64,000 nucleotides of DNA. Origin: Candidatus Woesearchaeota archaeon. Its GTDB lineage: Archaea > Nanobdellota > Nanobdellia > Woesearchaeales > WJKR01. Positions 16,927 to 42,972 of this stretch are shown here, piece by piece. Position numbers and translations under genes: made by a program. The notes under the pieces were generated by a model. That model worked only from the letters and a program-made list of their open reading frames with translations. It made no database searches and was not told where the DNA came from. Numbering within the stretch: the first letter of the stretch is position 1; each line of letters opens with the position of its first letter. The stretch lies in assembly GCA_016927245.1 (NCBI GenBank), contig JAFGNA010000010.1:9894-73893 (forward strand). Reading direction: 5' to 3'.

Positions 16927-16981
16927 GATTATTACTTTTTTTCGTGGATACTTGCTTGGTCGTTCTTTTGATGGGTTGGAA

Positions 16982-17431: not shown

Positions 17432-17469
17432 GATGATTGCGTTTTTGATGAGACATAGTGTTATTTTAG

Positions 17470-17537
17470 CGCTTCCGCCAGGTTTCGAGCCTGGAGATGA
17501 CTGGTTTAGTCATCCACGCCTATTCGTGTAGGAAGCG
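17470..17537 (-). ncRNA. tRNA-like cloverleaf, non-canonical (possible tRNA remnant or mimic)
   Basis: Minus strand reads CGCTTCC-TA-CACG-AATAGG-CGTG-G-ATGAC-TAAACCA-GTCAT-CT-CCAGG-CTCGAAA-CCTGG-C-GGAAGCG. It has a 7-bp acceptor, U8, a D-loop GG and a T-loop-like UCGAA. Against a real tRNA: no U33, a 2-nt variable region, an extra nt before the 3' acceptor strand, and a C1-G72 pair. Confidence 0.3.
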
Positions 17538-17592
17538 GGGAGGAAAGAAGCGCCTGTAGGGGCTTGCTCCTTTCCTGTAATGAGAGGTTTTC

Positions 17593-18435: not shown

Positions 18436-18656
18436 GGCTGGTAAAGGTTTAAATTGTTAATAATCATTTTTTTGGCGCTCTTGGTGGTAGTCGAACCTTG
18501 GTCAAAACTTACACCTTGATGGTCTTGCCGCTTTGCCGTCGCGGTGTGCAAGAGATGTATTTGGTTCTGTGCTTCTCCTGGAGTCCCATGGATGAATGCT
18601 CAGGCAGGGATCGTTGGGATCGCTGGGGTTCAGATGGTGGGATTGAGTTCTTCTAC

Positions 18657-19064
18657 TTACATGCTTTGACGGTCGTCGCCGACGATGGTCTTTACTGACG
18701 CGGCCAACGCTTCGTCGTCGGGCATCCTCGTCGAGTTCTTGCACAAGTGGATGCCTTGGACTTCGTAGTCTTTGATCTCGGTGGCGATGGTGCTTATTAG
18801 GACTGTCCTCATGTCGGCGCTGAACCAGACGCGGTTGAGGGCCGTGATGTCTTGGGTGATGAGATTCGCGAGGCGTTTCTCCCACTTGTTGATGCCGATG
18901 AGGATGCCTGCTGGGATGAGGAGCAGGGGGGCAAAGATGCTCATGAATTCTGCGGCGCTTGGGAAGATGAGCGGGGCGATGATGAATGATACTCCTAGGA
19001 TGAGGAGGAGGGTGGCGGTGATGGTTCTGCTGAACCTTTTCTGAATGATAGCTGAGAGTTTCAT
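18657..19064 (-). CDS. membrane protein (2 TM) with soluble C-terminal domain
   Basis: TATLLLILGVSFIIAPLIF and FAPLLLIPAGILIGI. Preferred over the overlapping His/Pro/Arg-rich ORF 18502..19107. Confidence 0.5.
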   Translation of the reverse strand: MKLSAIIQKRFSRTITATLLLILGVSFIIAPLIFPSAAEFMSIFAPLLLIPAGILIGINKWEKRLANLITQDITALNRVWFSADMRTVLISTIATEIKDYEVQGIHLCKNSTRMPDDEALAASVKTIVGDDRQSM

Positions 19065-23254: not shown

Positions 23255-24259
23255 CTAGAGGAAGACGTTCCAGTAGTTCCTCACGTACTCCTCAGCAGTG
23301 AAGCTGACGAGGGGCGCGTATGCCTCCCTGTCGTCATCCCCCAGCCCAACCCTATCGGCCTTGCCCAGCGCGCGCAGGTAGGCGTCCCGCCGCTTCTTGG
23401 TGATGATGAGGGGTGGGTACGTGTGCCGCAGCAGGATGAGATTGGCCAGCATGCGGCCGGTGCGACCGTTGCCGTCCATGAATGGGTGGATCTTCTCGAA
23501 CTTGTGGTGGAACAGCGTTGCCGAGACCAAGGGGTGCAGCTTGCCGTCATGCTCTTCGTGCCAGCGCAGCAGCGATTCCATGTCCGTCCGGACGTACGGC
23601 CCGGGCGTGGCGTCGAAGTGCGACCGGTACACCCTGATGTCCTGCGCGCGGTACCCTACACGGCCGTCCACGCCTGCCAGGAGTCGTCGGTGCACGTCCT
23701 GTATGAGCTCGTGCGTGAGCGCGGGCTTGCCGTCGTACAGCCAGTTGAAGACTGCGCTGGTGTTCTGCACGTCGTGCACTTCCCTGAGCGTCTTGTTCTT
23801 GGGCGTGCGTTGCTCGAGGAGGAGCCTGCTCGCTTCTTGGAGGGTGATGGTGTTTCCTTCCAGCGAGGTGGTGTTGAAGCTGAACTCGATGATGAAGTTC
23901 TGGAGGATTTCGTCCTTGGTCCGCTCGTCCAGCCGGGAGAAGGCGTGTTGGAAGTGGTAGCGGCAGGCCTCGACGTCAAGGGTGGTTTCCTTGCCGAGGT
24001 AGTCATCCGTGCGTGGCTTCTCTTGCTTTGCTTGCTCTTGCGCGTAGTTTGCCTGGAGGAACCGTTCGATGGTCTTATAGCTCTTCCTGATGTCGTCGGC
24101 GTATCGTGCTGGCAAGTCTTCCAGCCGTTCCCTGATCCGTGAGGGGTCGTCTCCGAGGTAGGCGATGTCTTTTGTCTGCTGCTTGCCGTTTTTCTTGACC
24201 GATGCGCGGAGGTAGTAGTAGGACTTTCCGCCCTTGTCCTTGCGGTAGAGGTAGACCAT
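23255..24259 (-). CDS. Fic family protein (class II-type, intramolecular inhibitory motif)
   Basis: Fic motif HPFMDGNGRTGRML. The upstream TTSLEGN fits the [S/T]xxxE[G/N] inhibitory helix. TATA (ATTATTTATA) lies 22 nt upstream of the ATG. Confidence 0.9.
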   Translation of the reverse strand: MVYLYRKDKGGKSYYYLRASVKKNGKQQTKDIAYLGDDPSRIRERLEDLPARYADDIRKSYKTIERFLQANYAQEQAKQEKPRTDDYLGKETTLDVEACRYHFQHAFSRLDERTKDEILQNFIIEFSFNTTSLEGNTITLQEASRLLLEQRTPKNKTLREVHDVQNTSAVFNWLYDGKPALTHELIQDVHRRLLAGVDGRVGYRAQDIRVYRSHFDATPGPYVRTDMESLLRWHEEHDGKLHPLVSATLFHHKFEKIHPFMDGNGRTGRMLANLILLRHTYPPLIITKKRRDAYLRALGKADRVGLGDDDREAYAPLVSFTAEEYVRNYWNVFL

Positions 24260-26670: not shown

Positions 26671-27583
26671 TGAAAGCCTGACGACGACAGCCAACGCTAG
26701 GCCACGCCCGATCCCCATCACCGTCTTCTCCGACAAGCTAAGCCCCCTCGAAACCATCGTCAAGTACCTCAAGGAAAACGAAGGATTAACAGCGACCGCC
26801 ATCGCAGCCCTCCTCAACCGCAGCCCGAGCACGATCACCACCACCTACGCCAACGCCACGCAGAAACACCCGCACCCCTTCACAGCAACAACGACCAGCC
26901 TCACCATCCCCCTCGCCGTCATCAAGTACCGCAAGCTCTCCACCTCAGAAGCGATCGTCATGTACCTCCACCACTACGAACAACTCTCATTCGCCACCAT
27001 CGCAACGCACCTCCACCGCGACAACCGCGTCATCTGGACCGTGCACAAACGCGCAAGCACAAAAACCACCAAGGAACGATTCCTCAACGACCTCACCACC
27101 AGGATAGAACGGGAACGGAAACAACTCACCCCCGAAGACAAGAAAAAACTCTTCGACCTCAAGCAACGACTCCAAGAGAAATACGGCTTCTCAGAAGAAG
27201 AGCTCAAACACATCCTCACCAAAACCGCGAGCACCCACCTCCCCATCACCATCTTCACCCAAGGACTACCGCCGCTTCAAGCAATCACGAGATACCTCCA
27301 CGACGAGCAAGTCCCCACCAAGAAAATAGCAAAACTCCTCCGCCGGCCAGCAGCGCAGATCAGCAACGCCTACCACCACGCGAAGAAACAAGAATTCAAA
27401 CCACAAAAAACCCCCTACCACGTCAGCACCACCTGCATCACCCAAGACAAGACCATCATGGAAGCAATCACCCACGAGCTCAAACAACAATACAAGCTCA
27501 CCAACGACCAACTAGCAACACTCCTGAAGAAGAAACAACACAGCATCGACCGCTGGCTACGCAACCACGAGAAAAAGAGGTAG
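26660..27583 (+). CDS. tandem-HTH repeat protein (3-4 sigma-r4/LuxR-like HTH units), putative DNA-binding
   Basis: Three clear repeats of (I)P(I)T(V/I)F…L(S/P)PL(E/Q).I.(K/R)YL……IA..L.R….I…Y..A.K, plus a degenerate fourth. TATA-like ATATATAAATA at 26617-26627. Confidence 0.65.
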   Translation: MYDNESLTTTANARPRPIPITVFSDKLSPLETIVKYLKENEGLTATAIAALLNRSPSTITTTYANATQKHPHPFTATTTSLTIPLAVIKYRKLSTSEAIVMYLHHYEQLSFATIATHLHRDNRVIWTVHKRASTKTTKERFLNDLTTRIERERKQLTPEDKKKLFDLKQRLQEKYGFSEEELKHILTKTASTHLPITIFTQGLPPLQAITRYLHDEQVPTKKIAKLLRRPAAQISNAYHHAKKQEFKPQKTPYHVSTTCITQDKTIMEAITHELKQQYKLTNDQLATLLKKKQHSIDRWLRNHEKKR

Positions 27584-27586
27584 AGC

Positions 27587-30500
27587 ATGAAGAAGAAGCA
27601 ACCGAGCAACAAACGCGCGGCAAGAAGAGCCGCCACGCTGCTCAGCGCCAGCCTCATACTCCTGCTCACCGCCATCATCGTCGCCGCGGCGCCACCAATC
27701 ACCATCGACATCGACGCCCCCGAACACGCCACCACTGGCGAGACCATCACGGTCAACATAAAAGCGACAGTCCAAGGCATCCCCATCATCAGCTACCACG
27801 CCAACGCCACCCTCGCCCACCCAGACGGCGCCGTGACCAGGCCGGAACTACGAGACCTCAGGAACGGCACGAAACAACTCAACATCACCCTAACGCAACC
27901 AGGAGACCACATCCTCATCATCGAGGCGAGCATAGGCGGCACGGCCCAGGAACGAACACTCACCATCACCGCCGAGGAACAAGCAACAGGGAGCATCGAC
28001 GTGACGTACGAGGACTACGCCCTCGGCATCCTCAGCGGCACCATCATCATCCACGACGCGCACCAACACATCATCACCCTCACCAGCGCCGACACCGCAA
28101 CAGGCCAAGAAGCCACTATCTGCGGCGTGGAGAACTGCCGTCACCACTGCACGTTCAGCTGCGCCGCCGACCTCGACGCGAACAAGCCCTACCGGCTCAC
28201 CGCCAACGCGCCCATCACCGGCGCCACCACCACGACAGTCCTCCTCCCAGCACAGCTCCAGAACAGGCCAACACTCCTCCCGCAAGAGCAGGAAGCGATA
28301 ACCGCGAGCACCGACAACGAGACCGCCACCGCCCTCAACATCACAGGGAACGAGAAGGCCTACTTGTTCGACAACGAACGAACACACCCCATAACCATCA
28401 ACAAAGGAAGCGTCACGCTCCCGCCGCTCCCAGCAGGCAAATACACCCTCATCCTCACCGACGGCACCGCCCTCAGCGCCATCACCGTCATCGCAGGCAG
28501 CGGCACACCCTCACAAGAACAACCAGTCACGGACCCGACGAGGCTCACCCTCACCAAGGACGAACTCACCAAGGCCTACGACCCCTACTACGGACAAGCA
28601 TGGTACACCGCCACCATCACCATCAACGAAGAGCACGACACCCTCGTCCTCGAGAACGAGACGGGCTGCGCGGCCAGGAACGCCGCGCTCTGGCACGGCA
28701 ACAAGCGCACCACCCTCGAACAACGCAACGACACCTGCACGTGGAAGCTGCCAGGAACGACGGGCCAGGCACGGATAGAAGTGCAGGCGAGCATCGCCCA
28801 AGCAAGCATCACCCACGAGCAACTCCAGACCAGCATCATCCACGAACAGCTACCACGAGCGTTCGACGACCACCTCATCAGCGTCTCGCTCAACAACCAA
28901 GCAGCAGGCACGTACCGCTACGTCACACCCCTACCGGGAGCAGCGACGCCCAACGACCACCCCTACGACTACGCTATCGAGGACCAACACCTCATCTGGT
29001 ACGCGAGCAACGAGCAAGCCACGATACCGCTCAGCCACGGACGAGAAGCAACGATCCCCCTCCAACGCGTAGCGCGGCAGAACGACACCTACCAGTACCG
29101 CGCCATCACGAACACCACCACAGCCCACCTCATCATACCCGCACCCTACAAGGAAGCCACCATCACCGCCGACCACGACTACAAACTCCCCGAAGAATCC
29201 TACCACTACCCCTACCTCATCGCCCTTGACCAGCCCACCGCCAAGCAAATACTCCTCACCACGACGACCAACCACACCAACGACACCATCACCGCCATCA
29301 GCAAAGCGCCGACCATGGCAATAGAGGGGCTGCCCTCGCAACTGCGCAAACAAGACCGCGCCAACCTCACCCTCACCACCCCGAGCAAGGAGTGGAACGC
29401 CACCCCCAACGCCACGATACGGCTCCTCGACCGGGAAGCAGGGACGGTCATGGCCGTGCACCAAGCGCTCGCCCACGAAGAGAACGGCACCTACCACGAC
29501 CAGGTAGCCCTGGACCTCGCAGCGGTCACCCCCGGCGCCTACACCCTCATCGCGACGTTCAGGCAAGGAGCCGCATACGCCACCACCACCGAAGAAGTCC
29601 TCATAACAGGCGAGGCGGGCGGCTTCAGCATCACCCCGGGCAAGCACGTCACGGCCGCGAAAGGAGAAGACGTGAACCTACAGCACGCCATCACCAACCT
29701 CGAAAGCGAGCGAAGCCTCATCATCAACCTCGACCTCCTCTACGAGCTCGAGAACGTGACGGCAACCATCAAGGACGACGAAGGCGTGAAGGCATTAACG
29801 GACAACGACAAAGACGGCAGGCCAGATACCGGCATACTCCTACCAGGAGAGACCGTCATCATCACCATCAACGGCCGCGTGCCGGCATGGGCTGAGAACG
29901 AGACAAAAGTCATCATCAAGGCGTCCGCAGCAAGCCAGGCACGCAGCATCGAGGATGACATCACCATCACATCACAAGAAGACATCATCATCCCCGCCTA
30001 CCACGACCTCGCCATCACCGGCATCGAGGAAGAAGACGGAACGGTGCTCATCACTATCATTAACAACGACGAAAATGACAGGACTGCGATGGTGGAGGTA
30101 ACCCTCAAGGACAAGAACTTCACGGACACCATAACCGTGCCTGTCAGCGTTCGAGCAAGAGATGAATCGGTCATCCCCGTCCAGAGGCGCGGCATAAGGC
30201 AGCCGTACGAGTGCGCCGCAACGCTCCTGGACGAGGAAGGATTACCGTACGCCGATGACAAGCAAGCCAACGACCGGCGCGTACGCCTGTTCAATGACGA
30301 GTGGACCGAGCCGTACACGCGACGCGCAGCGGTAGCCATCAAGGAGGTGCGCGGCGCCGACCACGACGCCTACGCCATCAAGGCGACGATCGACCTGCCT
30401 GACGACGCCGACATGGCAACGATGACAGCGGTCAAGCCGGCAAGGGAAGGAGGCGCGTTCACGACGAAGACCCTCAGCATCACCTACCTGTCGTTCGACG

Positions 30501-33500
30501 ACCAGGAGAAACGGGGCGAGCTACTCATCGACGCAGGACTCGTCAAGGCCAGCACTGAGAGCCTCATTTACTTGTACCTCAACGCCACGGGGGAGAACTC
30601 CACGGTCACCGTCGATGAAGCGGCAGGCATCATCATCGACAACAACGACCGGCTCGTCAGCACGGACGGCACCTGGGCCTCGGACTACCAGGTGCCCGGC
30701 CACTACAAAGCGGACTACCTCCACGACCTCGGCATCGGCAAGGGCAACAAAGCGGTCACCGTCAAGCCAGGAGACCACCCGTCCTTCACCCCGTCGACGT
30801 ACGAGGTGTACGCGTACCGGCCGGCGGACCGAGCGTTCTCGAGCAACGCCAAGACCGTCATCGCGCACGAGGACGGCGAGGAGACCATCACGCAGAACCA
30901 GCGCGTCAACGGGGAAGAGTGGCGCTACCTCGGCCTGTACCGCCTCGGCGACAGCAGCACTATCATCACCGACAACGAGCACACCAACGGCCTCGTCGTC
31001 TTCGACGCGCTCAGGCTGCTCCGCGTAGACCAGTACGCAACCACAGGCAAGGCAGAGACGAGAGCCGCGCACGACAACCGCTCAATAACCCTTGAAGAAG
31101 ACGGTGATGAGAGGAACTACACGTTCACCCTCGACATGACGATACGCGCGCATGCCAACGTGACCGACGTGCTCGTCACGAGCAGCCACGGCAATGAGAC
31201 CGTCGCCCTCAACACGACGAGGATCGACGACGCCTTCATGACGGCGTACCGGGCAATCGGCAGCGAGCAGCGCTACACCGCGAGCGTCGTCGCCTATGAC
31301 GGGAACGAGACGGTCGACCTCACCTACCTGGAATTCCCGTTCAGAGATGAACGGGAGCACGCCGTCACGAAGAACACCACCCTGCTCCTGCTCCAAGCAA
31401 CCTATCACTACGGCGATGAGGAGGCAGCGGAGGACGAGGGGAACGCCACCGTAAACAGGACGGGGGAGGCAGAGAACAAGACAATCAAGGGCTGGACCAC
31501 GATTGTCAGCGGAAAGAGCACGACGATACGCCTCCCTGACACGTTTGAAGGCAACGCGACTAACGCGACGTACGGCGTGTACTTCCTCATGCCATGGGGC
31601 AACGCGTCAGGATTGAACATCAGCATCAAGGGAGAGAACGCCACGCTCAGCGCCAACGATGAAGGAGAAGGGGACTTCACCGCGCAGTTCAACAGGACCT
31701 GGCATGACAGGACTGAGAGGAGCGCGTACGTGAACATCACCATCCTGCCCGCAGAGAACATCACGAACACTACTGAGGCGGAAGGGGAACCAGTAGAGGC
31801 GGTGCGGCAGGAGCCCGCGACCGTGGGCGAGCCCGTGCGGTGGACCAAGTACGTCCAGGGAGAATGGACCACGAGGATTCCTGTGAGTGCCGAGAACGTC
31901 GCGCTCGAGGCGGATGGGGAGCTTGTGGAGGAGGAAGAGACCGCCGTCATCATAGCAGGAAAACGCCTCGGACTCGCTGATTTCAGGGAACTTAGGCGAG
32001 CGGAGCTGCTGGAACGAGAAGCTGACGAGCTGGAGTTGGAGAAGGAGGACGCCAAGCTGGTCCGGAAGACGGCCATCGCGCTCGATCAGCAAGACCTGCG
32101 CGGCCAGGCCGAGAGCATCAAGGAATCATTAGGGGTGGACCTCGACGATGAGGAGAACGTCACGCTCGTCATCGATCGGCCTCACGATAAGAAGGCCATT
32201 GCCAAGATCACCTATGAGACCGAGGCGCCACTGCAAGAAGAGGAGCACGTCGGCAGGCCAGGCCTGCTCAAACGCGTCAAGGTGCACTCGAGCGCGAGCG
32301 TGCACTACCAGGACGTCAAGACCATGACCTGGCTGCCGGAGACCCCGATAACGCCCCGGCTCTACCACGTCATCGATGGACGACGAGTCGACGTCACCGA
32401 CAACAAGGATTACAGAGTCTCGTTCAACGACGCTGACGGTGACGGCATGGCTGACAGCGCGTCGTGGACCGTGCCGATGCTCTCAGAACAGTACTTCGAG
32501 TTCGGCCTCGCCACCATCAACACCCGGAAATCATTGTACCGCCCTGGCGAGACGGCAGAGGTCGTCATCGTCGTGCTGGACAACGAAGGACACCTCGTCA
32601 GCGGCGCTGACGTCGAGGTCAACGTGACCGAGCCTGACAACACCACGACGAGGTACACCACCGGCAGTGGTCACATCACCGAGACCGAGCCTGGCATCTA
32701 CGATCTCAGTCACGGAAGCACGGCGAACGAGGGCCGGTACGGGCTCTCCGTCAAGGCCACAAAACCAGGCGTGGAGAACGACATGCAATCCCACTTCGAC
32801 GTCCAGGCGTGGTACCCGTTCGACATCCTCCGCGACGTCCCTGTCACTGTTGACCCGTGGCGGGAAGAGCTCGAGGCGAGCATCACCGTCGTCGCATATA
32901 ACCACACCGACTCCTTCTCCTTAAAGGAGCACGTCCCGACGAGCTTCCTCATCAGCGACGCGGGCGGAGCAGTAGTGAGCGAGAACGGGAGCAGGAAGAC
33001 CTTGACGTGGACCGGGCTCACGAACGGCTCCGTCGCCTCCTACACGGCGTCCCTGCCGCTCATCACCCCGACCATGTATGATCTCGGAGAGGCAAAGATA
33101 ACGTATGGCAATAGCTCGTTCACCGAAGGCCGGCCATGGTACCTCGCCGTCGACCCCATCGAGCAGTTCACCAAGACGTGCCTCAACCTGGTCACCGAGG
33201 GAGCGGTGGCGGGGGACAACACCGGCACGTGCGCGCAAGTCGCGACGAGCAACAATACTCGGCCTGCGGGCGGGGACAACGCGCTCACTGCGGCTGATAA
33301 CTGGTTCGGCACCGACGCCCCTGCCGTGCTGACCGAGACGTTCGACGCCAATACTCCGACGGACGCCAACGTGTCCTATGCCTACCTCACTATCGAGTGG
33401 GGCACCCAGGATTGCGGCTCGCCCGCCTACATCACCATGGAGGTGAACAACGGCACGGGGTGGTACACGTTCGCCAACACGTGCTACACCACGCCCGAGG

Positions 33501-36500
33501 CGACGAGGCACTATGACCTCAGCGGCTACGTCACCACGGGAGACGCCGCGAACGAGCTGCAAATAAGGATTACCTACGGCGCTGACAGGGACGGCGGGGA
33601 CACCACGGACGACCTCTACGTCGACTACATCGACCTCGTCATCAACTACACCGTCGCCCCGCATTACAACACGTGGAGCCTGAACGTGAGCAACGGCGCC
33701 GTCGTTCGGCGGGGAACGCCGGTCAAGGCGTACGCGTACTGGAACTACAGCGACGGCATCGCCGAGTCGTACATCAAGCACAACGCGAACGGCACCTACC
33801 ACAACTATACTATCATGCCTTCAGGTGATTGGACGAACTACACGTTCAACACGCCGAACACGACGATGTTCAACCGCGTCGGCATCATCACCGCTCAGAC
33901 CATCTACGCGCGCGACTACGACGTGTGGAACCAGACGGCGCCGACGAAGAACTTCAAGCTCTATGACGACGCGAACGTCTCTGATTCCACGTTGACGCCG
34001 AGCATCATCAACCAGTCTGACAACGCGACTCTCATCTGCAAGGTCATGGACTACCACCTTAACTCCCCAATAGAGGACTTCACCGTGTATTTCTACCGTG
34101 ACGGCGCGTACAAGGCGAGCGCGAAGACGAACGCGACGGGGTGGGCATCGTACGACGCGGCGTACACGACTCCCGGCACGTACAACGTCTCGTGCCGCAT
34201 CAAGGACAGCGGGTATTACTACGCCCTCGCAGGCGCCAACAGTTCCTACGGGGAGCTGACCGTGCTGGACAGCTCATCTCCGAGCGTCAGTTTGGTCTCG
34301 CCTGCGGACAGCAGCCAATCAACAAATCAGAACGTCACGTTCACCTACACTGTTTCTGACACCTACTCGGGCATCCAGAACTGCTCGCTCTACCTCAACA
34401 GCACCAGGAACGCGAGCAACAGCACCGTCATCACCGAGTCAGGGAGCAACCAGATCAACGTCACCTTGCCGTACGGCACGTACGTCTGGGCGGTGGGTTG
34501 CTATGACAACAGCACGAACAGGAACTTCAAGCTCTCCGCGAACAGGACCATCGTCGTCGCGCCGGACTCAGAGGGACCTGTTATCACGCACTATCTGCCG
34601 CCGAACACGGGGATGACGTACGAGAACGTCACGTTCCTGTTCAACGTGGAGGACGCTCTGAGCGGGGTCAAGAACTGCACGCTCATCCTTGACGGCCTCG
34701 ACAACGTGAGCAACGCTTCCATCAGCAACGGCGATAACGTCTCGTTCGACGCGTACCTGCTCGATGACGGCCTGCACAGCTGGAAGGTGCGGTGCTATGA
34801 TGACTCTCCCGCGGAGAACGTGCGCACGAGCATCATCTGGACGTTCACGGTCGGCGAGGACGAGGACGGCCCTATCATCACGGTCATCTCGCCGCTGAAC
34901 AACACGGTGGACACCGACGGAAAGGTGAACATCACGTTCATCGCGGATGACTTCCTCTCAGGAGTGGAGAACTGCTCGCTCTATATCAATGACACGCTTA
35001 ATCAGACATACTACGCCAAGACGGTTCTTACCATGCCATTTGGAGCCGGAAGCAACAGCACCTTTACAGCAGATGAGTCAGGAAATGGAAACGATGGCAC
35101 GGTCATCAATGCCACATGGGGATCCTCCACAGGCTACAATGGTGAAGGATCATATTATTTTGACGGTGCCAGCGCATATATTGACATCCCTTCCTTGGCT
35201 ATAAGCAACTCACCTGGCTTTACCATCATGATGTGGGTGAAGGGACCTCCCAATCAGAACGATATGCGAATATTCTCTGAAGGCAGCACCATAGACCATG
35301 ATCCATTATTCAATCTGGGGACCAACATAGGGGGTGGTGAGCTAGATATTTACATCCGAGATGATGACGGGACCGAACGCATGAGCCACGTGCTGTCAAG
35401 CGCCGACGTCTTTGACAATACCTGGCATCATATTGCTTGGGTGGATGTCGGAGGGAATTATCAGCTGTATGTGGACGGCGAACCCGATATCTCAGGCTCC
35501 TACACGAAGACCGCGAAGTCATTGGACACCACCACTCTTGGCGCGATAAGACGCGCGGCTGTCAGCCATTACTTCACGGGCTACATAGATGAGGTGGAAC
35601 TATTCAATCAATCACTCTCCGCGGAACAGATCCGGGCGGAGTATGCGAACGTCTCCTTAGTGGAGGGAGAAGAAACCATCTTTTCTGAAGACAGCTTTTC
35701 AGAAGGAACTTATGCCTGGCATATCTCCTGCGTCGACGACTCAATCAACAGCAATGTCAGGAACACGTCCATACGAATACTCTATGTCAATTACGACTTC
35801 GACTCCCCTGACATCACGCTGGTATGGCCTGACAACCTCTACCAGGACCTCGACGGTGAACTCGACCTGGAATACAACGTGACGGACGAGAATGGCATCA
35901 GTAACTGCTCGCTGTACATTAACGGCTCTTATAACCGGTCGGACACCAGCGTCACTAAAGGGGTTAGCCAGTACTTCAGCCTGACAGGGCTCGCCGACAA
36001 CACTTACCTCTGGTACGTGAACTGCACGGACGACGCGGACGGTGAGAACTGGAACTATTCAGAGACGAGGAACTTCAGCGTCGGCCCGGACACCATCGGG
36101 CCTGCCATCACGCTCTTCGCCCCTTCCAACAGCACCACCGACTCCGACGGTGACATATTGTTCACCTACCAGGTCGACGACGTCTCCTCGGGCGTGGACA
36201 GCTGTCGCCTCTACGTCGACGGCGTCGAGGAGGACAGCGACGGCAGCATCACCGAAAGTATAGAGCAGGAGTTCTCGTTCAGCCTGGCCAATGGTGACTA
36301 TGAGTGGTATATCAACTGCACTGATGACTCGCCGCAGCAGAACATCGGCGTCAGCGAGACGCGCGACCTGACGGTGAGCATCTCGTACGAGTCCGAGTAC
36401 GACTTCTACCTGCCGAAGAGCACGTACGCCGCGGGCTCGGTTATCGAGCCGGTCGCGCACCTCGAGGACCCGGGAAGCGCCCCTATCGCCTCGGCGACGG

Positions 36501-39500
36501 CGTACGCGTACATCATCGAGAACCTCGGCGCTGACAACCAGACATTGTCCTGGTTCAACTCGTCATGGGAGCGGCGGATTGAGCAGCTGGTGACGAACGA
36601 CGACGCGTCGTACGCGCTCGAGGGATTCCCCATCAACATCACATTGGACACCGAGACGCTCATCAACGACGGACTCCTTAACGCCGATTGCAGCGACCTC
36701 CGCTTCGCAGACCAAGAAGGCACCGAGCTCGATCACTACTTCTACGATGCGGATAACGCGTGCGATGATACCGGTTCCAAGGTGCTCGTCTACCTTGACC
36801 GGTTGTGGAAGGGCCGCACGCACGCCATCGGCATCTACTTCAACAACTCCGCCGCGACGGCGGACGTCACGACGAGGAGCGCCTCGCAAGCAGTCGACAA
36901 CTTCGATGACGGCGACACCTTCCCCTCGGGAAGCGGGTATTGGAGCACCTCTTACACGAACGGCGCCGACGAGTGGTACCAGGACACCGCGCAAGTGTAC
37001 GACGGCACGAACGCTGCGCATTCCTACATCAGCTGCAACATCTTCTGCTCATTCGGCGGCGGCCGGCGCTCGTCGTTCAGCAAGGTCATCGAGATCAACG
37101 AGGAGAGCACCATCCATTGGCGTTGGTACGTGACGGGCGGCAGTGCCATCAGGTTCTCGATCGACAGCGCGCAGCAGACGAGTACCACCGCCGCGTCGTG
37201 GAACGCCGCCTCTGCCACCATCAGCCCAGGCACGCACACCATCGAGTGGGAATTCGAGGTCACCACCAACGCTAACAGGAACGCCTATGTCGACCAGATA
37301 TTCCTCGTGGGCAGCAACGCCACGGTCGGCGACCAGACGTCACAATCCACGTACGTCGCAACGCTACCCTCCAAGACCACGGACGCGAACGGCAACGCGA
37401 CGTTCTCATGGGACAGCATCGGCCAGTCCTACGGCAACTACTCGGTCACCGGGCACGCCCTGAAAGGCGCGTATTGGGGCGACAACGGGTCCATCTCGTT
37501 CTCCCTCGGCCCCGACACCGAGGAGCCTACGTATACGTCGTGGGGATTGAACGTGAGCGATGGCGCGGCCGTGACGCGCGGCGAGTCCGTCAAGGCGTAC
37601 GCGTACTGGTCTGACGACGTCCAGCTGGATGATGCTTTGCTCGAGCACAACGGTTCCGGAAGCTTCACCAATTATTCAATAACGGGGTTCGGCGGCGCTA
37701 AAGGCGACTGGGCGAACTATACCCTGAACACCTCTGACACGACTGATTTCGCTAGCATCGGCCTCGTCAACGTCAGCAAGATGTATGCGAATGACACGAC
37801 GGGGAACACGAACAAGACGACTCCTTATCATTACTTCTTCCTCTACTCGACAGCGGAAATCAATGATTCTTCCTTGAACGCCACGGCCGTCGACGAGGGA
37901 AGTTCCTTCACGGCGAAGTGCCGCGTCCGTGACGAGTACACCTTTTCGTCGTTGAGCGGCTACACCGTCACCTTCTATTTCGACGGCGTGTCCAAGGGCT
38001 CGGTGGACACGGACAGCGGCGGATGGGCGAACAAGAGCATCCAGAGCGACGTCCCGGGCGACAACGTCGAGGTGGTGTGCGTCATCGGGAACGAGACGTC
38101 CATGTATTATTACAGGGGCTCTCCGTATTCCTTGACGCAGCATATCAACATCACGGACATCTATCCTCCTGACGTGACCATCTTCACCCCTGCAAACAAG
38201 AGCACGAAGACGACGCCGACGCACGCCTTGAGCTTCACCGCTGATGACACGGGCACGCTCGACCGTTGCTGGTTGTACGGCGATTGGAACGGCGGCTGGC
38301 ACCGCAACCAGACGATGATGGACCCTGACAACGGCGGCTTCCCCTTCGTGAACTACTTCGACCCGGTCACGTTCGAAGCCGGCAACTACACCTGGAATGT
38401 GTACTGCAATGACACTGCAGGTAACATGGGCGTGATGGGTGATGCTTGGTTCATCATCGACCTGCAGCAGCCTAATGTCCAGATAACCAGTCCTGCCTTC
38501 CATGAGTTGCGGTCGCCCGGCACCCATTTAGTGAATTACACGGTGCAGCTGCCCGACCCGATCATCGGCATCGACAACTGCACCTTGTACGTCGACGGCG
38601 CGTACAACCAGACCGACCCCGGGCCTATTGAGAAGGTGGTGAACCAGAACTTCACCATCGGCTACCTCGGCTACGGGAAGTATCTCATCAACATCTCGTG
38701 CACCGCGAACAACACGCTCTCAGGATATGATACCGAGTTCATCTACATCCCGAGGATACGGACGTACGCGCCGGTGAACGGCTCGGCGGCGGAGCGAGAC
38801 CCGTTGTCAGCCATGCCTGACGACCTCACTTTCATGGTCGAGGAGCTCAGCGGCGGGAGCGACATCTCCATCACGTTCAAGGCGAACCACACCTCTCCTT
38901 CGTTGGGGGTGTTGCAGAACGAGTCCATGGGCGTGTCGCTCACGAACGCGACTGGCATCGCTTCCTCGACGTTCAATCCGGGCGCGGCATGGTTCGCGGG
39001 CAACTACACGTGGTGGGGGATGTTCACGTGGTGGCCGTCCAACGTCACGGTGGATTACCGGTGGTTCTTGCTGTACGGCTACGCGGACGTGGTGTTCAGG
39101 GAAGCGGCCTCGGGTCCTGGCGCGTCATACGTCTACCGGGAGGAGGTCACGGTGCAGGCCTTGGTGGACAGCACGGGCCCGGAGAGCGCGTCGGTGATGA
39201 ACCAGAGCTATGGCGCCAGGGCGAACGCGACGTTCCGGTCGCCGCGCAAGGAGAGCAACCTGACCTATGAGCTCGTGTTTAACGGCACGTCCTGGACGGT
39301 GACGCAGAACTCTTCCTTGTTCCGGCGCCATGGGTTCTGGAACGTCTCGTTGGAGGGTAACGTCTCGTCGCCGTTCATCAGCATCAACGACACCTCTTGG
39401 CGGACGTTCTTCCTCAACCTGACCGGGTACGGCATCCCGACCGTGCAGCTGCACGACCCTGATAATGATTCCACGTTGTTCTTCGCCGACCGCGACAAGA

Positions 39501-41326
39501 ACTGGACGCTCATCTCGTTCAACTGGACCGCGAATGACACCATCGAGGATTTCACTTACTGCAACCTCACGCTCGACGGCTCGGTGAACGTCTCTGATGT
39601 CAAGTCCTTGAATGCGACGTGGACGGACAGGAACATCAATTTCACCGGTGGAGGGTATCATTATTGGAACGTCTCTTGCTCTGACGACGCCAACGCGGTC
39701 GCATCGGACACGTACATGTTCAAGATTGTGCCTCCTGACTCGCGAGTGCAGTTGATGAACTACACGCTCGGTGGCGGCAATGCGACGGTGTATGAGCAGG
39801 TGAACTTCACCGCTAACTACACAAACTATTACAACGAGTCTATCATCGGTAATTGCACCATCAGGTTCAATGACGGCTTGTCGGATAGCATGACGTATAA
39901 CATTACATCTGAGCTGTATGAGTACGAGCGGAACATGACGTACGGCGGCTGGATATATTGGAACGTGTCGTGCAACCACACGACGTATTATGACACCGCG
40001 GTCGCGAACGCTTCCTACTACACGCATCGCACCAAGGTGAACGTCACCGCTCCTTCCAACGGCACGGCCTTGGACCGGGACGGCACTGATGGTGGCGTGC
40101 CGGACAGCGCCGTCATCTACACGCTGCTCGCCAAGCAGTACCCTGGCGTGAACATCTCGTTCTGGGCGAACAGGACATACCCTGATTCGTGGTCCGTGGA
40201 GTATCTCGGCATGAACCAGACGAACGCGACAGGCCATACTTCCTTGGTGTTCGATCCGAACAGCACGTTCTGGGCTGGTAATTACACGTTGTTCACGAAC
40301 AGCAGCCTGGCCGATCCTATGATGACCAAGTATGCTTACGTGAAGGGCACGTTGAACGTCACGTTCAGCTATGCCGGCGCGTATCCGAACGCGTCGTACT
40401 ACCGCAACTCTACGGTCGAGGCAAGGTTCAACGTCACTTCGATGGGTGCTGAGAACAGTTCCTTGTTGGATTCGTATTACCTGGATGACTCTACGTTGCG
40501 GGCGTATTACGTGTCGCCGTCGGGCACGGATGTGCGGTCGTTGAACCTCTCCTTGGTATCGGGCGATGTGTTCAATGCGAGCAGCTTCATGAACACGACC
40601 GCTGAGCTCGACTTGTGGAACGTGTCGGCCAACTACACTGAGACAGAGTATTTCTTCTTCAACCAGAGCCCGACGCGGCAGTTCAACCTGACGAAGATTC
40701 CGACGACGCTCACGGCGTGGGACCAGTACGGCCCCGAGGAAGGCTACGTTCCTGCGTACAGGGCCGAGAACGTCTCGTTCTATGCGAACTTCACGAATAA
40801 CATCACCGGTGCGCCTATCAGTATTTCTCAGAGCTGCAACTTCTCGTTCGGTGATGGCATGTGGGCGTGGGGTGCTTGGAACGCGACTTCTGGGTTGCAT
40901 GAGGTGCGTAACAAGTCGTTCGACCCGCATGGCTTGTACGCGTGGAACGTGACGTGCGGCAACTGGTTGTACCAGTACCGGTCGTGGACGGACAGCATCA
41001 GGGTGTATGCGCGCACGAACCTTTCGCTCACGGGGTCTTTGTCGTGGGTCGGTGATGACCGGCTGCGCATGGATATCTCCATCGTGAACTACGCCGTGTA
41101 TGACGAGTGGGTGAACGCGTATGGGTTCATCCCGTTGAACTTCTCGTGGTACGGGTTTTCGCCGTTCGGCCCTGACGCGACGACGGCGGTCTCTGGCTTG
41201 TTCGTCGGCAACGCTTCTGAGACGAACCTGACCGTGCCCGCGGCTGGCTCGTTGCCGTTCTCGTTCCTCATCAATCGGACGGCGCCGTATAACACGCGAG
41301 GCCTGTTCATGTTCGGCGGCGGTTAG
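27587..41326 (+). CDS. giant secreted/surface protein (4,579 aa): Ig-like repeats, LamG, DUF2341-like, sequon-dense
   Basis: Uninterrupted 13.7-kb ORF starting 3 nt after the HTH gene, with a GAGG SD. N-terminal signal anchor RRAATLLSASLILLLTAIIVAAAP. About 95-aa repeats carry D..GP.I…SG(V/I).NC(S/T)LY. LamG (Laminin_G_3-like) at ~35063-35645. DUF2341-like W.RR…FP(I)…D.RF.D..G..L.(Y/H)…(W)…I..Y(F/Y).N at ~36565-36856. N-x-S/T sequons occur throughout. Confidence 0.9.
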   Translation: MKKKQPSNKRAARRAATLLSASLILLLTAIIVAAAPPITIDIDAPEHATTGETITVNIKATVQGIPIISYHANATLAHPDGAVTRPELRDLRNGTKQLNITLTQPGDHILIIEASIGGTAQERTLTITAEEQATGSIDVTYEDYALGILSGTIIIHDAHQHIITLTSADTATGQEATICGVENCRHHCTFSCAADLDANKPYRLTANAPITGATTTTVLLPAQLQNRPTLLPQEQEAITASTDNETATALNITGNEKAYLFDNERTHPITINKGSVTLPPLPAGKYTLILTDGTALSAITVIAGSGTPSQEQPVTDPTRLTLTKDELTKAYDPYYGQAWYTATITINEEHDTLVLENETGCAARNAALWHGNKRTTLEQRNDTCTWKLPGTTGQARIEVQASIAQASITHEQLQTSIIHEQLPRAFDDHLISVSLNNQAAGTYRYVTPLPGAATPNDHPYDYAIEDQHLIWYASNEQATIPLSHGREATIPLQRVARQNDTYQYRAITNTTTAHLIIPAPYKEATITADHDYKLPEESYHYPYLIALDQPTAKQILLTTTTNHTNDTITAISKAPTMAIEGLPSQLRKQDRANLTLTTPSKEWNATPNATIRLLDREAGTVMAVHQALAHEENGTYHDQVALDLAAVTPGAYTLIATFRQGAAYATTTEEVLITGEAGGFSITPGKHVTAAKGEDVNLQHAITNLESERSLIINLDLLYELENVTATIKDDEGVKALTDNDKDGRPDTGILLPGETVIITINGRVPAWAENETKVIIKASAASQARSIEDDITITSQEDIIIPAYHDLAITGIEEEDGTVLITIINNDENDRTAMVEVTLKDKNFTDTITVPVSVRARDESVIPVQRRGIRQPYECAATLLDEEGLPYADDKQANDRRVRLFNDEWTEPYTRRAAVAIKEVRGADHDAYAIKATIDLPDDADMATMTAVKPAREGGAFTTKTLSITYLSFDDQEKRGELLIDAGLVKASTESLIYLYLNATGENSTVTVDEAAGIIIDNNDRLVSTDGTWASDYQVPGHYKADYLHDLGIGKGNKAVTVKPGDHPSFTPSTYEVYAYRPADRAFSSNAKTVIAHEDGEETITQNQRVNGEEWRYLGLYRLGDSSTIITDNEHTNGLVVFDALRLLRVDQYATTGKAETRAAHDNRSITLEEDGDERNYTFTLDMTIRAHANVTDVLVTSSHGNETVALNTTRIDDAFMTAYRAIGSEQRYTASVVAYDGNETVDLTYLEFPFRDEREHAVTKNTTLLLLQATYHYGDEEAAEDEGNATVNRTGEAENKTIKGWTTIVSGKSTTIRLPDTFEGNATNATYGVYFLMPWGNASGLNISIKGENATLSANDEGEGDFTAQFNRTWHDRTERSAYVNITILPAENITNTTEAEGEPVEAVRQEPATVGEPVRWTKYVQGEWTTRIPVSAENVALEADGELVEEEETAVIIAGKRLGLADFRELRRAELLEREADELELEKEDAKLVRKTAIALDQQDLRGQAESIKESLGVDLDDEENVTLVIDRPHDKKAIAKITYETEAPLQEEEHVGRPGLLKRVKVHSSASVHYQDVKTMTWLPETPITPRLYHVIDGRRVDVTDNKDYRVSFNDADGDGMADSASWTVPMLSEQYFEFGLATINTRKSLYRPGETAEVVIVVLDNEGHLVSGADVEVNVTEPDNTTTRYTTGSGHITETEPGIYDLSHGSTANEGRYGLSVKATKPGVENDMQSHFDVQAWYPFDILRDVPVTVDPWREELEASITVVAYNHTDSFSLKEHVPTSFLISDAGGAVVSENGSRKTLTWTGLTNGSVASYTASLPLITPTMYDLGEAKITYGNSSFTEGRPWYLAVDPIEQFTKTCLNLVTEGAVAGDNTGTCAQVATSNNTRPAGGDNALTAADNWFGTDAPAVLTETFDANTPTDANVSYAYLTIEWGTQDCGSPAYITMEVNNGTGWYTFANTCYTTPEATRHYDLSGYVTTGDAANELQIRITYGADRDGGDTTDDLYVDYIDLVINYTVAPHYNTWSLNVSNGAVVRRGTPVKAYAYWNYSDGIAESYIKHNANGTYHNYTIMPSGDWTNYTFNTPNTTMFNRVGIITAQTIYARDYDVWNQTAPTKNFKLYDDANVSDSTLTPSIINQSDNATLICKVMDYHLNSPIEDFTVYFYRDGAYKASAKTNATGWASYDAAYTTPGTYNVSCRIKDSGYYYALAGANSSYGELTVLDSSSPSVSLVSPADSSQSTNQNVTFTYTVSDTYSGIQNCSLYLNSTRNASNSTVITESGSNQINVTLPYGTYVWAVGCYDNSTNRNFKLSANRTIVVAPDSEGPVITHYLPPNTGMTYENVTFLFNVEDALSGVKNCTLILDGLDNVSNASISNGDNVSFDAYLLDDGLHSWKVRCYDDSPAENVRTSIIWTFTVGEDEDGPIITVISPLNNTVDTDGKVNITFIADDFLSGVENCSLYINDTLNQTYYAKTVLTMPFGAGSNSTFTADESGNGNDGTVINATWGSSTGYNGEGSYYFDGASAYIDIPSLAISNSPGFTIMMWVKGPPNQNDMRIFSEGSTIDHDPLFNLGTNIGGGELDIYIRDDDGTERMSHVLSSADVFDNTWHHIAWVDVGGNYQLYVDGEPDISGSYTKTAKSLDTTTLGAIRRAAVSHYFTGYIDEVELFNQSLSAEQIRAEYANVSLVEGEETIFSEDSFSEGTYAWHISCVDDSINSNVRNTSIRILYVNYDFDSPDITLVWPDNLYQDLDGELDLEYNVTDENGISNCSLYINGSYNRSDTSVTKGVSQYFSLTGLADNTYLWYVNCTDDADGENWNYSETRNFSVGPDTIGPAITLFAPSNSTTDSDGDILFTYQVDDVSSGVDSCRLYVDGVEEDSDGSITESIEQEFSFSLANGDYEWYINCTDDSPQQNIGVSETRDLTVSISYESEYDFYLPKSTYAAGSVIEPVAHLEDPGSAPIASATAYAYIIENLGADNQTLSWFNSSWERRIEQLVTNDDASYALEGFPINITLDTETLINDGLLNADCSDLRFADQEGTELDHYFYDADNACDDTGSKVLVYLDRLWKGRTHAIGIYFNNSAATADVTTRSASQAVDNFDDGDTFPSGSGYWSTSYTNGADEWYQDTAQVYDGTNAAHSYISCNIFCSFGGGRRSSFSKVIEINEESTIHWRWYVTGGSAIRFSIDSAQQTSTTAASWNAASATISPGTHTIEWEFEVTTNANRNAYVDQIFLVGSNATVGDQTSQSTYVATLPSKTTDANGNATFSWDSIGQSYGNYSVTGHALKGAYWGDNGSISFSLGPDTEEPTYTSWGLNVSDGAAVTRGESVKAYAYWSDDVQLDDALLEHNGSGSFTNYSITGFGGAKGDWANYTLNTSDTTDFASIGLVNVSKMYANDTTGNTNKTTPYHYFFLYSTAEINDSSLNATAVDEGSSFTAKCRVRDEYTFSSLSGYTVTFYFDGVSKGSVDTDSGGWANKSIQSDVPGDNVEVVCVIGNETSMYYYRGSPYSLTQHINITDIYPPDVTIFTPANKSTKTTPTHALSFTADDTGTLDRCWLYGDWNGGWHRNQTMMDPDNGGFPFVNYFDPVTFEAGNYTWNVYCNDTAGNMGVMGDAWFIIDLQQPNVQITSPAFHELRSPGTHLVNYTVQLPDPIIGIDNCTLYVDGAYNQTDPGPIEKVVNQNFTIGYLGYGKYLINISCTANNTLSGYDTEFIYIPRIRTYAPVNGSAAERDPLSAMPDDLTFMVEELSGGSDISITFKANHTSPSLGVLQNESMGVSLTNATGIASSTFNPGAAWFAGNYTWWGMFTWWPSNVTVDYRWFLLYGYADVVFREAASGPGASYVYREEVTVQALVDSTGPESASVMNQSYGARANATFRSPRKESNLTYELVFNGTSWTVTQNSSLFRRHGFWNVSLEGNVSSPFISINDTSWRTFFLNLTGYGIPTVQLHDPDNDSTLFFADRDKNWTLISFNWTANDTIEDFTYCNLTLDGSVNVSDVKSLNATWTDRNINFTGGGYHYWNVSCSDDANAVASDTYMFKIVPPDSRVQLMNYTLGGGNATVYEQVNFTANYTNYYNESIIGNCTIRFNDGLSDSMTYNITSELYEYERNMTYGGWIYWNVSCNHTTYYDTAVANASYYTHRTKVNVTAPSNGTALDRDGTDGGVPDSAVIYTLLAKQYPGVNISFWANRTYPDSWSVEYLGMNQTNATGHTSLVFDPNSTFWAGNYTLFTNSSLADPMMTKYAYVKGTLNVTFSYAGAYPNASYYRNSTVEARFNVTSMGAENSSLLDSYYLDDSTLRAYYVSPSGTDVRSLNLSLVSGDVFNASSFMNTTAELDLWNVSANYTETEYFFFNQSPTRQFNLTKIPTTLTAWDQYGPEEGYVPAYRAENVSFYANFTNNITGAPISISQSCNFSFGDGMWAWGAWNATSGLHEVRNKSFDPHGLYAWNVTCGNWLYQYRSWTDSIRVYARTNLSLTGSLSWVGDDRLRMDISIVNYAVYDEWVNAYGFIPLNFSWYGFSPFGPDATTAVSGLFVGNASETNLTVPAAGSLPFSFLINRTAPYNTRGLFMFGGG

Positions 41327-42225
41327 ATCTGGACGAGGAGTAGCCCTTTGTATTCGTGCTTGAGCTTGTCCTTGGCTTTCTTGGCCACGTCGCCGGTGGT
41401 GATGAAGAGCACTGGTAGTTTTTTTCCTTGCCCTTGGAGGTAGGCTGAGCTGAGGTCGCCGTCGTTGCATTTCTTCTTGTTCTTCGCCTTGCAGAAGTAG
41501 TCCACCCTGCCGACCGCGGTGGGGAGGGTGATCTCGAACTCGATGTCTGAGTCTTTTCGCTTGACGTCTTTCTTGGTGACGTGGATGCGTTTCTCCGTGA
41601 AGTATGCCAGGACTCGTCTGAGGAAGGGGTCGCCGGTGTCGTCTTGTTCTTTGAGGGCTTTCGTCGTGGGGGTTGGTCGCGGCTCTGCTGGTCGCTCGGT
41701 GGGGGTGTGCTGGGGGGTCGTTGCGGGCGTTGCTGCTTGAGCAGGGGGGTTTCTTGGCTGTTCCTTGGCTTGTTCGGGCGTGATGCCGAGCGCTTGTTTG
41801 ACTTGGTTCTCTGCTTCGTCGTTGGGGAGGAGGTACCATTTCCAGAAGAGTTCTGCGCCGTCCTTGGTCTTGGCCTCGACGGGGATGGCGAAGTCTTTTA
41901 TCTGGCGGAGGCACACCCTGGTGAGCGGTTCTTGTTCTTTGTCTCTGAGGACTTTCCGCTCTTTGAGGAGTTGCGCTGCTCGTCGTTCTTTCTCTCCGAG
42001 GTCGTCGAGGTGCTCTGCCATCCGGTAGGCGTGTTCTGGCACGTAGTAGAACGGGCTGCCTCCTCGTTTGGTGTTGCTGATCTTGAGCTTGCCGGCTTCT
42101 CGTAGCTCGGTGAGGAGGGCGCCGATGGTGAAGGTGTCTCCTTCGCCGAGTGCTTGTTTGATGTGGACGGGGAGGCAGGGTCCTTTTCGTTGGAGGACGC
42201 TGAGGACTGCTTCTCTGGTGAGCAT
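41323..42225 (-). CDS. winged-helix DNA-binding protein with PD-(D/E)xK-like C-terminal domain (tentative)
   Basis: N-terminal wHTH-like segments. The Pro/Thr/Ala linker is followed by …SDIEFEITL…VDYFCKAKNKKK…YLQGQGKKLPVLFITTG, resembling an Mrr/restriction-endonuclease fold. Overlaps the giant gene stop by 4 nt. Confidence 0.6.
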   Translation of the reverse strand: MLTREAVLSVLQRKGPCLPVHIKQALGEGDTFTIGALLTELREAGKLKISNTKRGGSPFYYVPEHAYRMAEHLDDLGEKERRAAQLLKERKVLRDKEQEPLTRVCLRQIKDFAIPVEAKTKDGAELFWKWYLLPNDEAENQVKQALGITPEQAKEQPRNPPAQAATPATTPQHTPTERPAEPRPTPTTKALKEQDDTGDPFLRRVLAYFTEKRIHVTKKDVKRKDSDIEFEITLPTAVGRVDYFCKAKNKKKCNDGDLSSAYLQGQGKKLPVLFITTGDVAKKAKDKLKHEYKGLLLVQI

Positions 42226-42327
42226 GGTTTTCTGTGAACTCGGCGGAGTATTTAATCCTTGTTGCTGTTCCTGAACAACATATTTTTTCTATAAGGAAAA
42301 TAAATTGGTCAAAAAAAATTCGCCAGA

Positions 42328-42972
42328 TCATGGCCTCATCCATTTAATCTCCCAGTAGCTGACGTCCCCTTCGTCATCAACGACACCGATGAGCAGCCGT
42401 TTCTTGGTGCTGTGCGCCACCCTGTTCTTCGCGGCGAACTCGTACCAGGTCAACGTGCTACCTTCGTGCACGGGGTAGACGACCCAGCGCGCGTGGTCCT
42501 CGCCTGGCTTGACGCCGCGGTCGTACACCCTGAAGTCCGCGCCGAACTTCAGCGCCGTCTTGACGATGTAGCCCCTGTTCCTCATGTCCTTGAAGACGGC
42601 GTACCTGATCCAGAATTCCGGCTCTATCCGTTTCGCCTTGGCGAGGAAGCTGGTGAAATCCAATTCTTTGTTGCGGTAGTCCTTCACGCGTAGCCGCCCT
42701 TTTTCCAGGAGGTACAGGGACTCGTGCAGCGACAGCTGGACCTTCCCGTCTTCCAGCACGACGCCGAAACGGCTCTGGGCGTAGAGGTCTCTGGCGAGGT
42801 CGGAGCTCTCCGTGATGACGCGTTCCTTGGCGAAGAGTGCGTGCACTTTCTCTTTGCGTTTCCCGTTGCTTACTGCTTTGGGGATGAGCTTGTTGAGGTC
42901 TTCCTCGTCCAGCGGTGAGGGGAGGGTGAATTCTTCTGTGTGGATGGATTCTGGTGCTTGTTTTTTCACCAT
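42328..42972 (-). CDS. endA: tRNA-splicing endonuclease
   Basis: C-terminal catalytic domain Y.VFKDMRNRGYIVKTALKFGADFRVY…H(A)RWVV(Y)…VAHSTKKRLLIG, with the conserved Tyr/His/Lys pattern. 214 aa. Confidence 0.9.
   Translation of the reverse strand: MVKKQAPESIHTEEFTLPSPLDEEDLNKLIPKAVSNGKRKEKVHALFAKERVITESSDLARDLYAQSRFGVVLEDGKVQLSLHESLYLLEKGRLRVKDYRNKELDFTSFLAKAKRIEPEFWIRYAVFKDMRNRGYIVKTALKFGADFRVYDRGVKPGEDHARWVVYPVHEGSTLTWYEFAAKNRVAHSTKKRLLIGVVDDEGDVSYWEIKWMRP

Follow-up and report, generated by a model that had tools for sequence, protein, structure and literature searches.

The 64,000-nucleotide stretch of the Woesearchaeota contig JAFGNA010000010.1 analysed here (the window) carries a giant open reading frame (ORF) for a predicted secreted surface protein, in which a full-length Laminin_G_3 (LamG) domain is nested within one immunoglobulin (Ig)-like repeat, r3. 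The LamG unit and the half repeat that follows it form a sharply bounded patch whose codon usage is foreign to the gene. The explanation we favour, and to which we give an even chance of being right, is that this is a mosaic adhesin gene, the segment from about the NCSLYIN motif of r3 through LamG to about the end of the repeat having been imported by recombination from a giant gene of lower GC content.

Five tandem Ig-like repeats occupy amino acids (aa) 2229-2931 of the giant protein. Four of them measure 97-98 aa, and the third (r3, 34859-35794) measures 312 aa. Alignment of the five repeats with MAFFT produced one gap of 213-214 residues in r1, r2, r4 and r5, facing r3 residues 51-263, and the hidden Markov model (HMM) of the repeat matched r3 in two separate stretches, with hmm 1-50 falling at aa 2425-2474 and hmm 48-98 at aa 2685-2735. 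A family HMM free of r3 was built from 57 foreign DPANN repeats together with r1, r2, r4 and r5; with this model, r3 with its insert spliced out scored 94.8 bits, within the range of its sibling repeats (92.9-108.4 bits), and the halves scored 49.1 bits (N-half, hmm 1-50) and 36.6 bits (C-half, hmm 50-97) when taken singly, in the right order and register. Across 37 repeats of the Ig family, residues C38, W73, C77 and D79 never vary, and r3 keeps them on either side of the insert, with the N-half contributing NCS and the C-half W-H-I-S-C-V-D. As the invariant residues are shared out in this way, a functional repeat would need both halves to be joined, and the halves, which supply the Cys...Trp-x3-Cys-x-Asp core, are expected from their sequence to reassemble into one beta-sandwich. 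An earlier note on this DNA had described the third repeat as split by a complete LamG domain, and the MAFFT, HMM and Pfam results all agree with that description, the insert comprising 213 aa.

The identity of the insert is equally clear at the level of the domain profile. Laminin_G_3 (PF13385) was matched with E-values of 9.5e-22 for the full-length protein and 4.6e-24 for the excerpt, at 78.2-85.7 bits compared to a cut-off of 27.6. An AlphaFold2 model of r3 residues 52-266 showed an all-beta jelly-roll with predicted local distance difference test (pLDDT) values mostly between 74 and 98. A sequence search found no relative of the LamG insert in the PDB; by Foldseek, the model matched lectin-like jelly-rolls (E about 1e-10, probability 1.0), namely jelly-roll sub-domains of receptor-binding domains and the carbohydrate-binding domain 4 of the arabinanase AbnA. 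The ligand of the LamG domain would likely be a glycan. The coordinates of the patch, of the repeats and of further features are listed in the table.

Table. Position of the foreign patch, the Ig-like repeats and other features within the window (GC3, GC content at third codon positions)
Feature	Coordinates	Strand	Remarks
Compositionally deviant patch, 270 codons (2466-2735)	34982..35791	+	GC3 0.56 vs 0.83
Inserted unit, 213 aa, aa 2475-2687	35009..35647	+	linker strand TVLTMPFGAGSNSTFT, LamG jelly-roll, C-terminal helix
Laminin_G_3 core, aa 2526-2682	35162..35632	+	Pfam profile positions 1-150 of 151
NCSLYIN-encoding DNA	34970..34989	+	85% identical to 35903-35922 in r4; best-conserved inter-repeat DNA
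r3 N-terminal half, aa 2425-2474	34859..35008	+	hmm 1-50; ends in conserved NCSLYIN
r3 C-terminal half, aa 2688-2736	35648..35794	+	Ig family; conserved W, C, D kept; GC3 0.57
Repeats r1 and r2	34271-34564, 34565-34858	+	98 aa each, uninterrupted; native GC3 0.86, 0.87
Repeats r4 and r5	35795-36088, 36089-36379	+	uninterrupted; native GC3 0.81, 0.86
Giant ORF	27587..41326	+	4,579 aa; predicted secreted surface protein
Protein with several helix-turn-helix (HTH) motifs, 307 aa	26660-27583	+	stops 4 nt upstream of giant ORF start
Archaeal RNase P RNA, full-length	59919-60271	-	RF00373, 112 bits
Second large surface-type protein, 1,163 aa	60383-63874	-	two Laminin_G_3, FG-GAP repeats, 3-keto-disaccharide hydrolase-like domain

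The patch was delimited by its third codon positions. The best model with two breakpoints had a GC3 of 0.563 inside the patch and 0.829 outside, with a gain of 48.2 log-likelihood units (lnL), and an unconstrained scan of the whole gene recovered the same interval, while GC content at first and second positions (GC1 and GC2) was flat across it. The shift is also visible in single codon fractions of the patch compared to the rest of the gene, such as AAT (0.60 versus 0.09), TTT (0.64 versus 0.03), CAT (0.83 versus 0.19), TCA (0.31 versus 0.07), TCG (0.00 versus 0.25) and GAA (0.67 versus 0.26). Over runs of 270 codons, GC3 bottomed out at 0.64 among 20 other window genes and at 0.76 in the remainder of the giant gene. 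As an internal control for LamG composition served the second large surface-type protein, whose codon usage is native throughout (GC3 0.80); its two LamG domains, 27% identical to that of the patch, have a GC3 of 0.83-0.84, so that low GC3 is not tied to the domain type. The patch is therefore compositionally foreign with respect to the gene, the window and the native LamG domains. The earlier note had already proposed a low-GC interval with A/T-ending codons, at 34970-35960, and a plot of sliding-window GC and codon adaptation across 33-37 kb as its check. The quantitative analysis of GC3 and codon usage found the breakpoint, and the break is real (lnL gain 48), but it ends near 35791 and repeat r4 is native. 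The note had further pointed to a gap in long alternative-frame ORFs at 34.8-36.0 kb. Such a gap exists; however, ORFs of at least 150 aa are missing over 33.8-36.6 kb, which is wider than the patch, and stop codons in the alternative frames increase to no more than 84 per kb from 62-67, so that this line of evidence is weak.

The likelihood profile gave support intervals of 34931-35027 for the left boundary and 35710-35872 for the right one. Within r3, the first 41 codons are native (GC3 0.88, 36/41), whereas in the C-terminal half only 28 of the 49 codons end in G or C, which has a probability of P = 2e-5 under native usage. Accordingly, confining the foreign usage to the insert lowered the likelihood by 12.2 lnL, and extending it to all of r3 lowered it by 8.5 lnL. 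The block of foreign composition thus consists of the LamG unit and the following half repeat, starting at or just after NCSLYIN and ending at about the repeat boundary. That it takes in LamG and the C-half but spares the start of the N-half points to replacement of a segment by recombination rather than insertion of a domain; the interpretation in the earlier note is supported in part only, as the foreign patch extends beyond the LamG domain. The NCSLYIN-encoding DNA coincides with the left compositional break, which makes it a candidate crossover site, and the longest inter-repeat identity at this junction is an 11-nt exact run inside the 20-nt match. Neither a target-site duplication nor terminal inverted repeats or other terminal repeats were found at the insert junctions, and blastn of the patch against the 64-kb window returned the patch itself only, with no second copy. 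Together, these results argue against an insertion element, a duplication or the variable region of a diversity-generating retroelement (DGR). The insertion element was rejected on the state of the junctions, and DGR variable region and internal duplication were rejected as the window holds no near-identical template repeat and no second copy.

All hits of a word-index search were LamG proteins from Planctomycetota and Verrucomicrobiota, with 45-49% identity. An exhaustive HMMER search of 1.84 billion representative proteins identified the closest LamG in a protein here called P0102, with 62% identity over 209 aa, while the next-best matches reached at most 49%. By phmmer, r3 residues 55-274 aligned with P0102 residues 153-375 in one stretch (272 bits), and a separate alignment of the insert with the nested unit of P0102 gave 61% identity over 213 aa, end to end and including the linker VL.MPF..GSNST. 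P0102 is a 3,680-aa fragment encoded on an 11-kb metagenome contig with a GC content of 0.41 and a GC3 of 0.34, and it carries ten repeats of the Ig family of r3 further downstream. Thus, the nearest known relative of the patch LamG resides in a giant protein of similar type encoded at low GC. In order of proximity, the patch LamG is nearest to P0102, which itself looks DPANN-like, and then to bacteria of the PVC group (Planctomycetota and Verrucomicrobiota), and the flanks are nearest to DPANN metagenome-assembled genomes (MAGs). Relatives with the Ig family of r3 range in GC content from 0.29 to 0.55, and the GC3 of the relatives' FEN1 genes (0.22-0.68) brackets the value of the patch. The lower-GC donor supposed in the earlier note is hence plausible, given the composition of the P0102 gene and the GC3 of most Woesearchaeota relatives.

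An origin of the LamG from PVC bacteria was considered and was downgraded after the much closer, archaeal-type P0102 had been found. The LamG subfamily of the patch and P0102 shares 45-49% identity with small PVC LamG proteins compared to about 30-35% with ordinary archaeal LamG modules, so that this type of LamG may have crossed between domains of life at an earlier time. On another metagenome contig (L131, Ga0272441_10000014, GC 0.32), giant ORFs alternate LamG and Ig repeats of the same family in the order LamG-Ig-LamG, side by side and not nested; this arrangement is a possible intermediate toward nesting in an Ig repeat.

Searches for a donor gave a best match of 46% identity in metagenomes and of at most 33% among viruses, a genome scan with a profile of the patch and P0102 reached 44-45% in Planctomycetota and 35% at best in Woesearchaeota, and the P0102 locus gave no blastn match to the patch. 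The giant protein is a singleton at 90%-identity clustering, and no orthologue of its gene was present in the collections searched: a genome scan with the downstream 500 aa yielded matches of at most 41% identity in DPANN MAGs, one with the adjacent HTH gene no syntenic giant gene, a word-index search with aa 1751-2326 nothing at E <=1e-10, and a look-up of the exact sequence no contig.

According to the mosaic explanation, homologous or homeologous recombination, in the manner of a gene-conversion-like cassette exchange, would have brought in the segment of r3. Its source would be an archaeon of lower GC content with a related gene for a giant surface protein, in which LamG was already nested in this type of repeat. 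In the resulting protein, LamG would be looped out between two strands of r3 and may be displayed as an extra ligand-binding head on the repeat stalk. Several observations weigh against this explanation. The searches, including those of metagenome, genome and viral collections, gave no protein match above 62% identity and no match to the patch at the DNA level. In addition, no other repeat of the r3 family split by LamG was found among 20 genome loci, the 150 best representative proteins and 80 metagenome loci, a search which took in about 150 foreign full-length repeats (57 strong full-length ones coming from the 20 genome loci) and in which multi-LamG proteins made up most of the list of 150 and loci were retrieved through exact 8-mer seeds. 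As neither a donor nor a second LamG-split Ig repeat was found, the proposed architecture of the donor is hypothetical. The repeats of the window are no closer to each other than to foreign repeats; as the repeats diverged anciently, a phylogeny of half repeats is uninformative. The intermediate GC3 of the patch (0.56) fits a recent import from a donor of medium GC content and an old, half-ameliorated import equally well. Finally, in the AlphaFold2 model, computed from a shallow alignment, the repeat halves (r3 residues 1-51 and 267-312) had pLDDT values below 50.

One alternative, proposed in the earlier note, is insertion of a foreign LamG cassette into a loop of a native r3, both halves of which would then be native. 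On the left, the patch could begin with the insert itself, as positions 35009 and 35021 lie only 3.1 and 1.6 lnL below the optimum, and the unit including its linker (TVLTMPF..GSNSTFT) is also nested in other host domains elsewhere, the behaviour of a transplantable cassette. The right side speaks against it, where a patch that stopped with the insert would fit worse by 8.8 lnL; with the foreign codon usage of the C-half, the cost of the insertion-only model and the lack of flanking duplications or terminal repeats at the insert, pure insertion appears unlikely. We also consider it improbable that the patch is a metagenome chimera, i.e., that about 0.8 kb of the homologous gene of a co-occurring population of lower GC content was spliced into the high-GC gene during assembly. 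The contig does stem from an uncultured organism, the protein is the singleton mentioned above and comes from one NCBI contig of 85,640 bp, arrays of repeats are error-prone for assemblers, and the collections searched hold no independent copy of the junctions. However, such an artefact would require the assembly to switch twice within 810 bp, between sequences that, differing at most third positions, would have few long k-mers in common, the exact run at the left junction amounting to 11 nt; moreover, at both junctions the reading frame and the register of the repeats are preserved exactly, resulting in a complete 98-residue repeat and a complete LamG.

The patch could further have been copied from a paralogous Ig repeat with nested LamG in the same genome, located, e.g., on an island acquired earlier. 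DPANN genomes often hold several giant repeat paralogues, the loci L002 and L003 each having two long ORFs rich in Ig repeats, and only 64 kb of the genome are in view. Within the window, however, there is no copy of the patch as DNA or protein, and since none of the window genes has a GC3 below 0.64, the source paralogue would itself be foreign, leaving intragenomic conversion quite improbable in our judgement. The explanation we find hardest to credit is a native sequence with a local codon bias due to selection or mutation, such as slow A/T-ending codons that pace the folding of the nested domain. The stretch of low GC3 is indeed exactly the part that is translated between the first half of r3 and the completion of the repeat, as a folding-pause model predicts. 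Yet the run of 270 codons with altered usage observed here is far longer than known rare-codon clusters. In P0102, the nested LamG has a GC3 of 0.27 compared to 0.34 for the gene, but other 100-codon blocks of that gene have equal or lower values, and the native LamG domains of the window are without such a bias.

The giant ORF product has an N-terminal hydrophobic signal or anchor, 194 N-X-S/T sequons and a pI of 4.45, and Pfam identified Golvesin_C, MG2, Big_7 (Ig-like repeats), Laminin_G_3 and DUF2341 domains. From these features the protein is predicted to be acidic, heavily N-glycosylatable and located at the surface, and it resembles a class of giant surface proteins, organism-specific and glycosylated, for which the literature suggests a link to host attachment in DPANN archaea. 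Outside the Ig array, an apparent large internal duplication relates aa ~1950-2230 (~33435-34275) to aa ~3290-3520 (~37455-38145); both segments start with ...Y(N/T)(T/S)W(S/G)LNVS(N/D)GA(V/A)V.RG..VKAYAYW... and are followed by Ig-like repeats, so that a duplicated super-module appears to underlie the construction of the gene. Over positions 27000-32000, its 5' third, AT skew reaches +0.56 and GC skew falls to -0.33, the coding strand being rich in A and C and encoding a sequence rich in Thr, Ala, His and Ile; this strand skew fades toward the 3' end. Long ORFs run antisense to or overlap the giant gene (39125-42343 on the minus strand, also, e.g., 32921-33802 and 37676-38527) and are most likely spurious and caused by the high GC3. 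The first of them, of 1,072 aa, shares 2.2 kb with the 3' end of the giant gene and is likely to mask a real gene for 300 aa at 41323-42225. The HTH protein is encoded on the same strand directly upstream and is maybe a co-transcribed regulator; homologues with 32-43% identity occur in four MAGs, in which no comparable giant gene lies downstream.

The RNase P RNA fixes the domain of life, and the window is therefore archaeal; further archaeal genes in the window encode a tRNA-intron endonuclease, FEN1 and Trm5/Tyw2. FEN1 is 70-72% identical to that of two Woesearchaeota-type MAGs of the lineages CAZKVR01 and WJKR01, both of high GC content (0.56-0.57), whereas more distant Woesearchaeota have a GC content of 0.34-0.53 and a FEN1 GC3 within the range given above. 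The source organism is, accordingly, a Woesearchaeota-like DPANN archaeon of unusually high GC content. The genes at 13000-19000 have a GC3 of 0.65-0.75 and a GC content of 0.49-0.53, compared to 0.8-0.9 and about 0.6 elsewhere; the genome is, thus, also compositionally heterogeneous at the scale of genes, but never down to the level of the patch. The gene of the second LamG protein directly adjoins that of the RNase P RNA, and a Fic/DOC-family protein is encoded at 23255-24259 on the minus strand, among Trm5/Tyw2, FEN1 and an EamA transporter, upstream of the giant gene.

The finding mainly bears on the biology of host recognition in DPANN archaea, as giant surface proteins are leading candidates for recognition of and attachment to the host by these genome-reduced organisms. 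If real, a bounded, donor-like block would be direct evidence for swaps of binding heads between lineages at sub-gene scale, and the LamG head of r3, which may bind a glycan or the host cell, would be a candidate determinant of specificity. A broader proposal, which we regard as possible rather than likely, is that DPANN archaea exchange cassettes of LamG and adjoining repeats between giant adhesin genes of very different GC content, the conserved Ig motifs serving as landing pads. If true, cassette exchange would be a modular mechanism to re-target host attachment, and the window would present a case caught in the act, with the cassette also in a new type of host repeat. More generally, one gene may hold more than one compositional history, which matters for binning, the detection of horizontal transfer and codon-based prediction of expression in MAGs. 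Should the patch turn out to be an assembly chimera, it would still be a cautionary case for repeat-rich genes.

Large, organism-specific and N-glycosylated LamG/ConA-like lectin proteins of nanohaloarchaea have been proposed to form a host-specific attachment system (PMC7443923), and the LamG locus of Mia14, a member of the archaeal Richmond Mine acidophilic nanoorganisms (ARMAN), sits on a genomic island (PMC5498576), which suggests horizontal mobility of such genes. The protein described here shares with these lectin giants that it is very large, organism-specific, rich in sequons, LamG-bearing and predicted to be extracellular. However, the reports on them (PMC7443923, PMC5498576) concern whole genes or loci, and neither a sub-genic mosaic patch nor nesting of LamG in an Ig repeat is described.

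Nesting of LamG is common in giant archaeal-type proteins and by itself not an unusual event. Among 790 LamG domains of the 150 best proteins, 57 had one half of the usual host domain on each side and 244 had just its C-half as a neighbour, and this host domain was found unsplit 19 times. In P0102 and many other giant proteins it is a domain of about 100 aa of the form NWY ... VLNMPF | LamG | ... WxCxVxPxDG. The nested modules (e.g., of P0102, P0073, P0104 and P0120) have the same build as the one here, with the linker V-L-x-M/L-P-F-x-G-S-N-S-T, a Laminin_G_3 jelly-roll and a short helix, and the unit is likewise looped out of a beta-sandwich of about 100 aa. The host domain, in contrast, is here the 98-aa Ig repeat NCSL(I/Y)xNG ... 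YxWxVNCTD. Resemblance of the motifs had raised the suspicion that the two hosts are homologous, which was rejected by HMM and hhalign: the HMM of the usual host had no match in the 4,579-aa protein, the halves of r3 scored at most 1.3 bits, and the hhalign probability was 0.2-1%. Furthermore, there is one nested LamG module here, whereas the usual giant proteins carry tandem arrays of 5-22, and its codon usage departs from that of its own gene.

The PVC LamG proteins are the best matches among named genomes, although more distant than P0102, and share the subfamily motifs MRIFSEGS..PLFNLGT, FD.TWHHIAWVD and TTT.G.I.RA..SH.FTG.IDEV. They are free-standing proteins of 200-500 aa, un-nested and without the archaeal linker, and some have a PEP-CTERM anchor.

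Mosaic surface-protein genes that arise by homologous recombination between lineages are a general phenomenon in bacteria, while to our knowledge sub-genic mosaics have hardly been documented in DPANN archaea. As in the bacterial cases, a sharply bounded, donor-like block with edges in conserved sequence lies in an otherwise native gene, and the product is predicted to be surface-exposed and likely under diversifying selection; the differences are that no donor allele is known and that the lineage is an archaeal one of the DPANN. What is new here is, thus, a different host repeat for the common design of a nested LamG, together with a process that is well known from mosaic surface genes.

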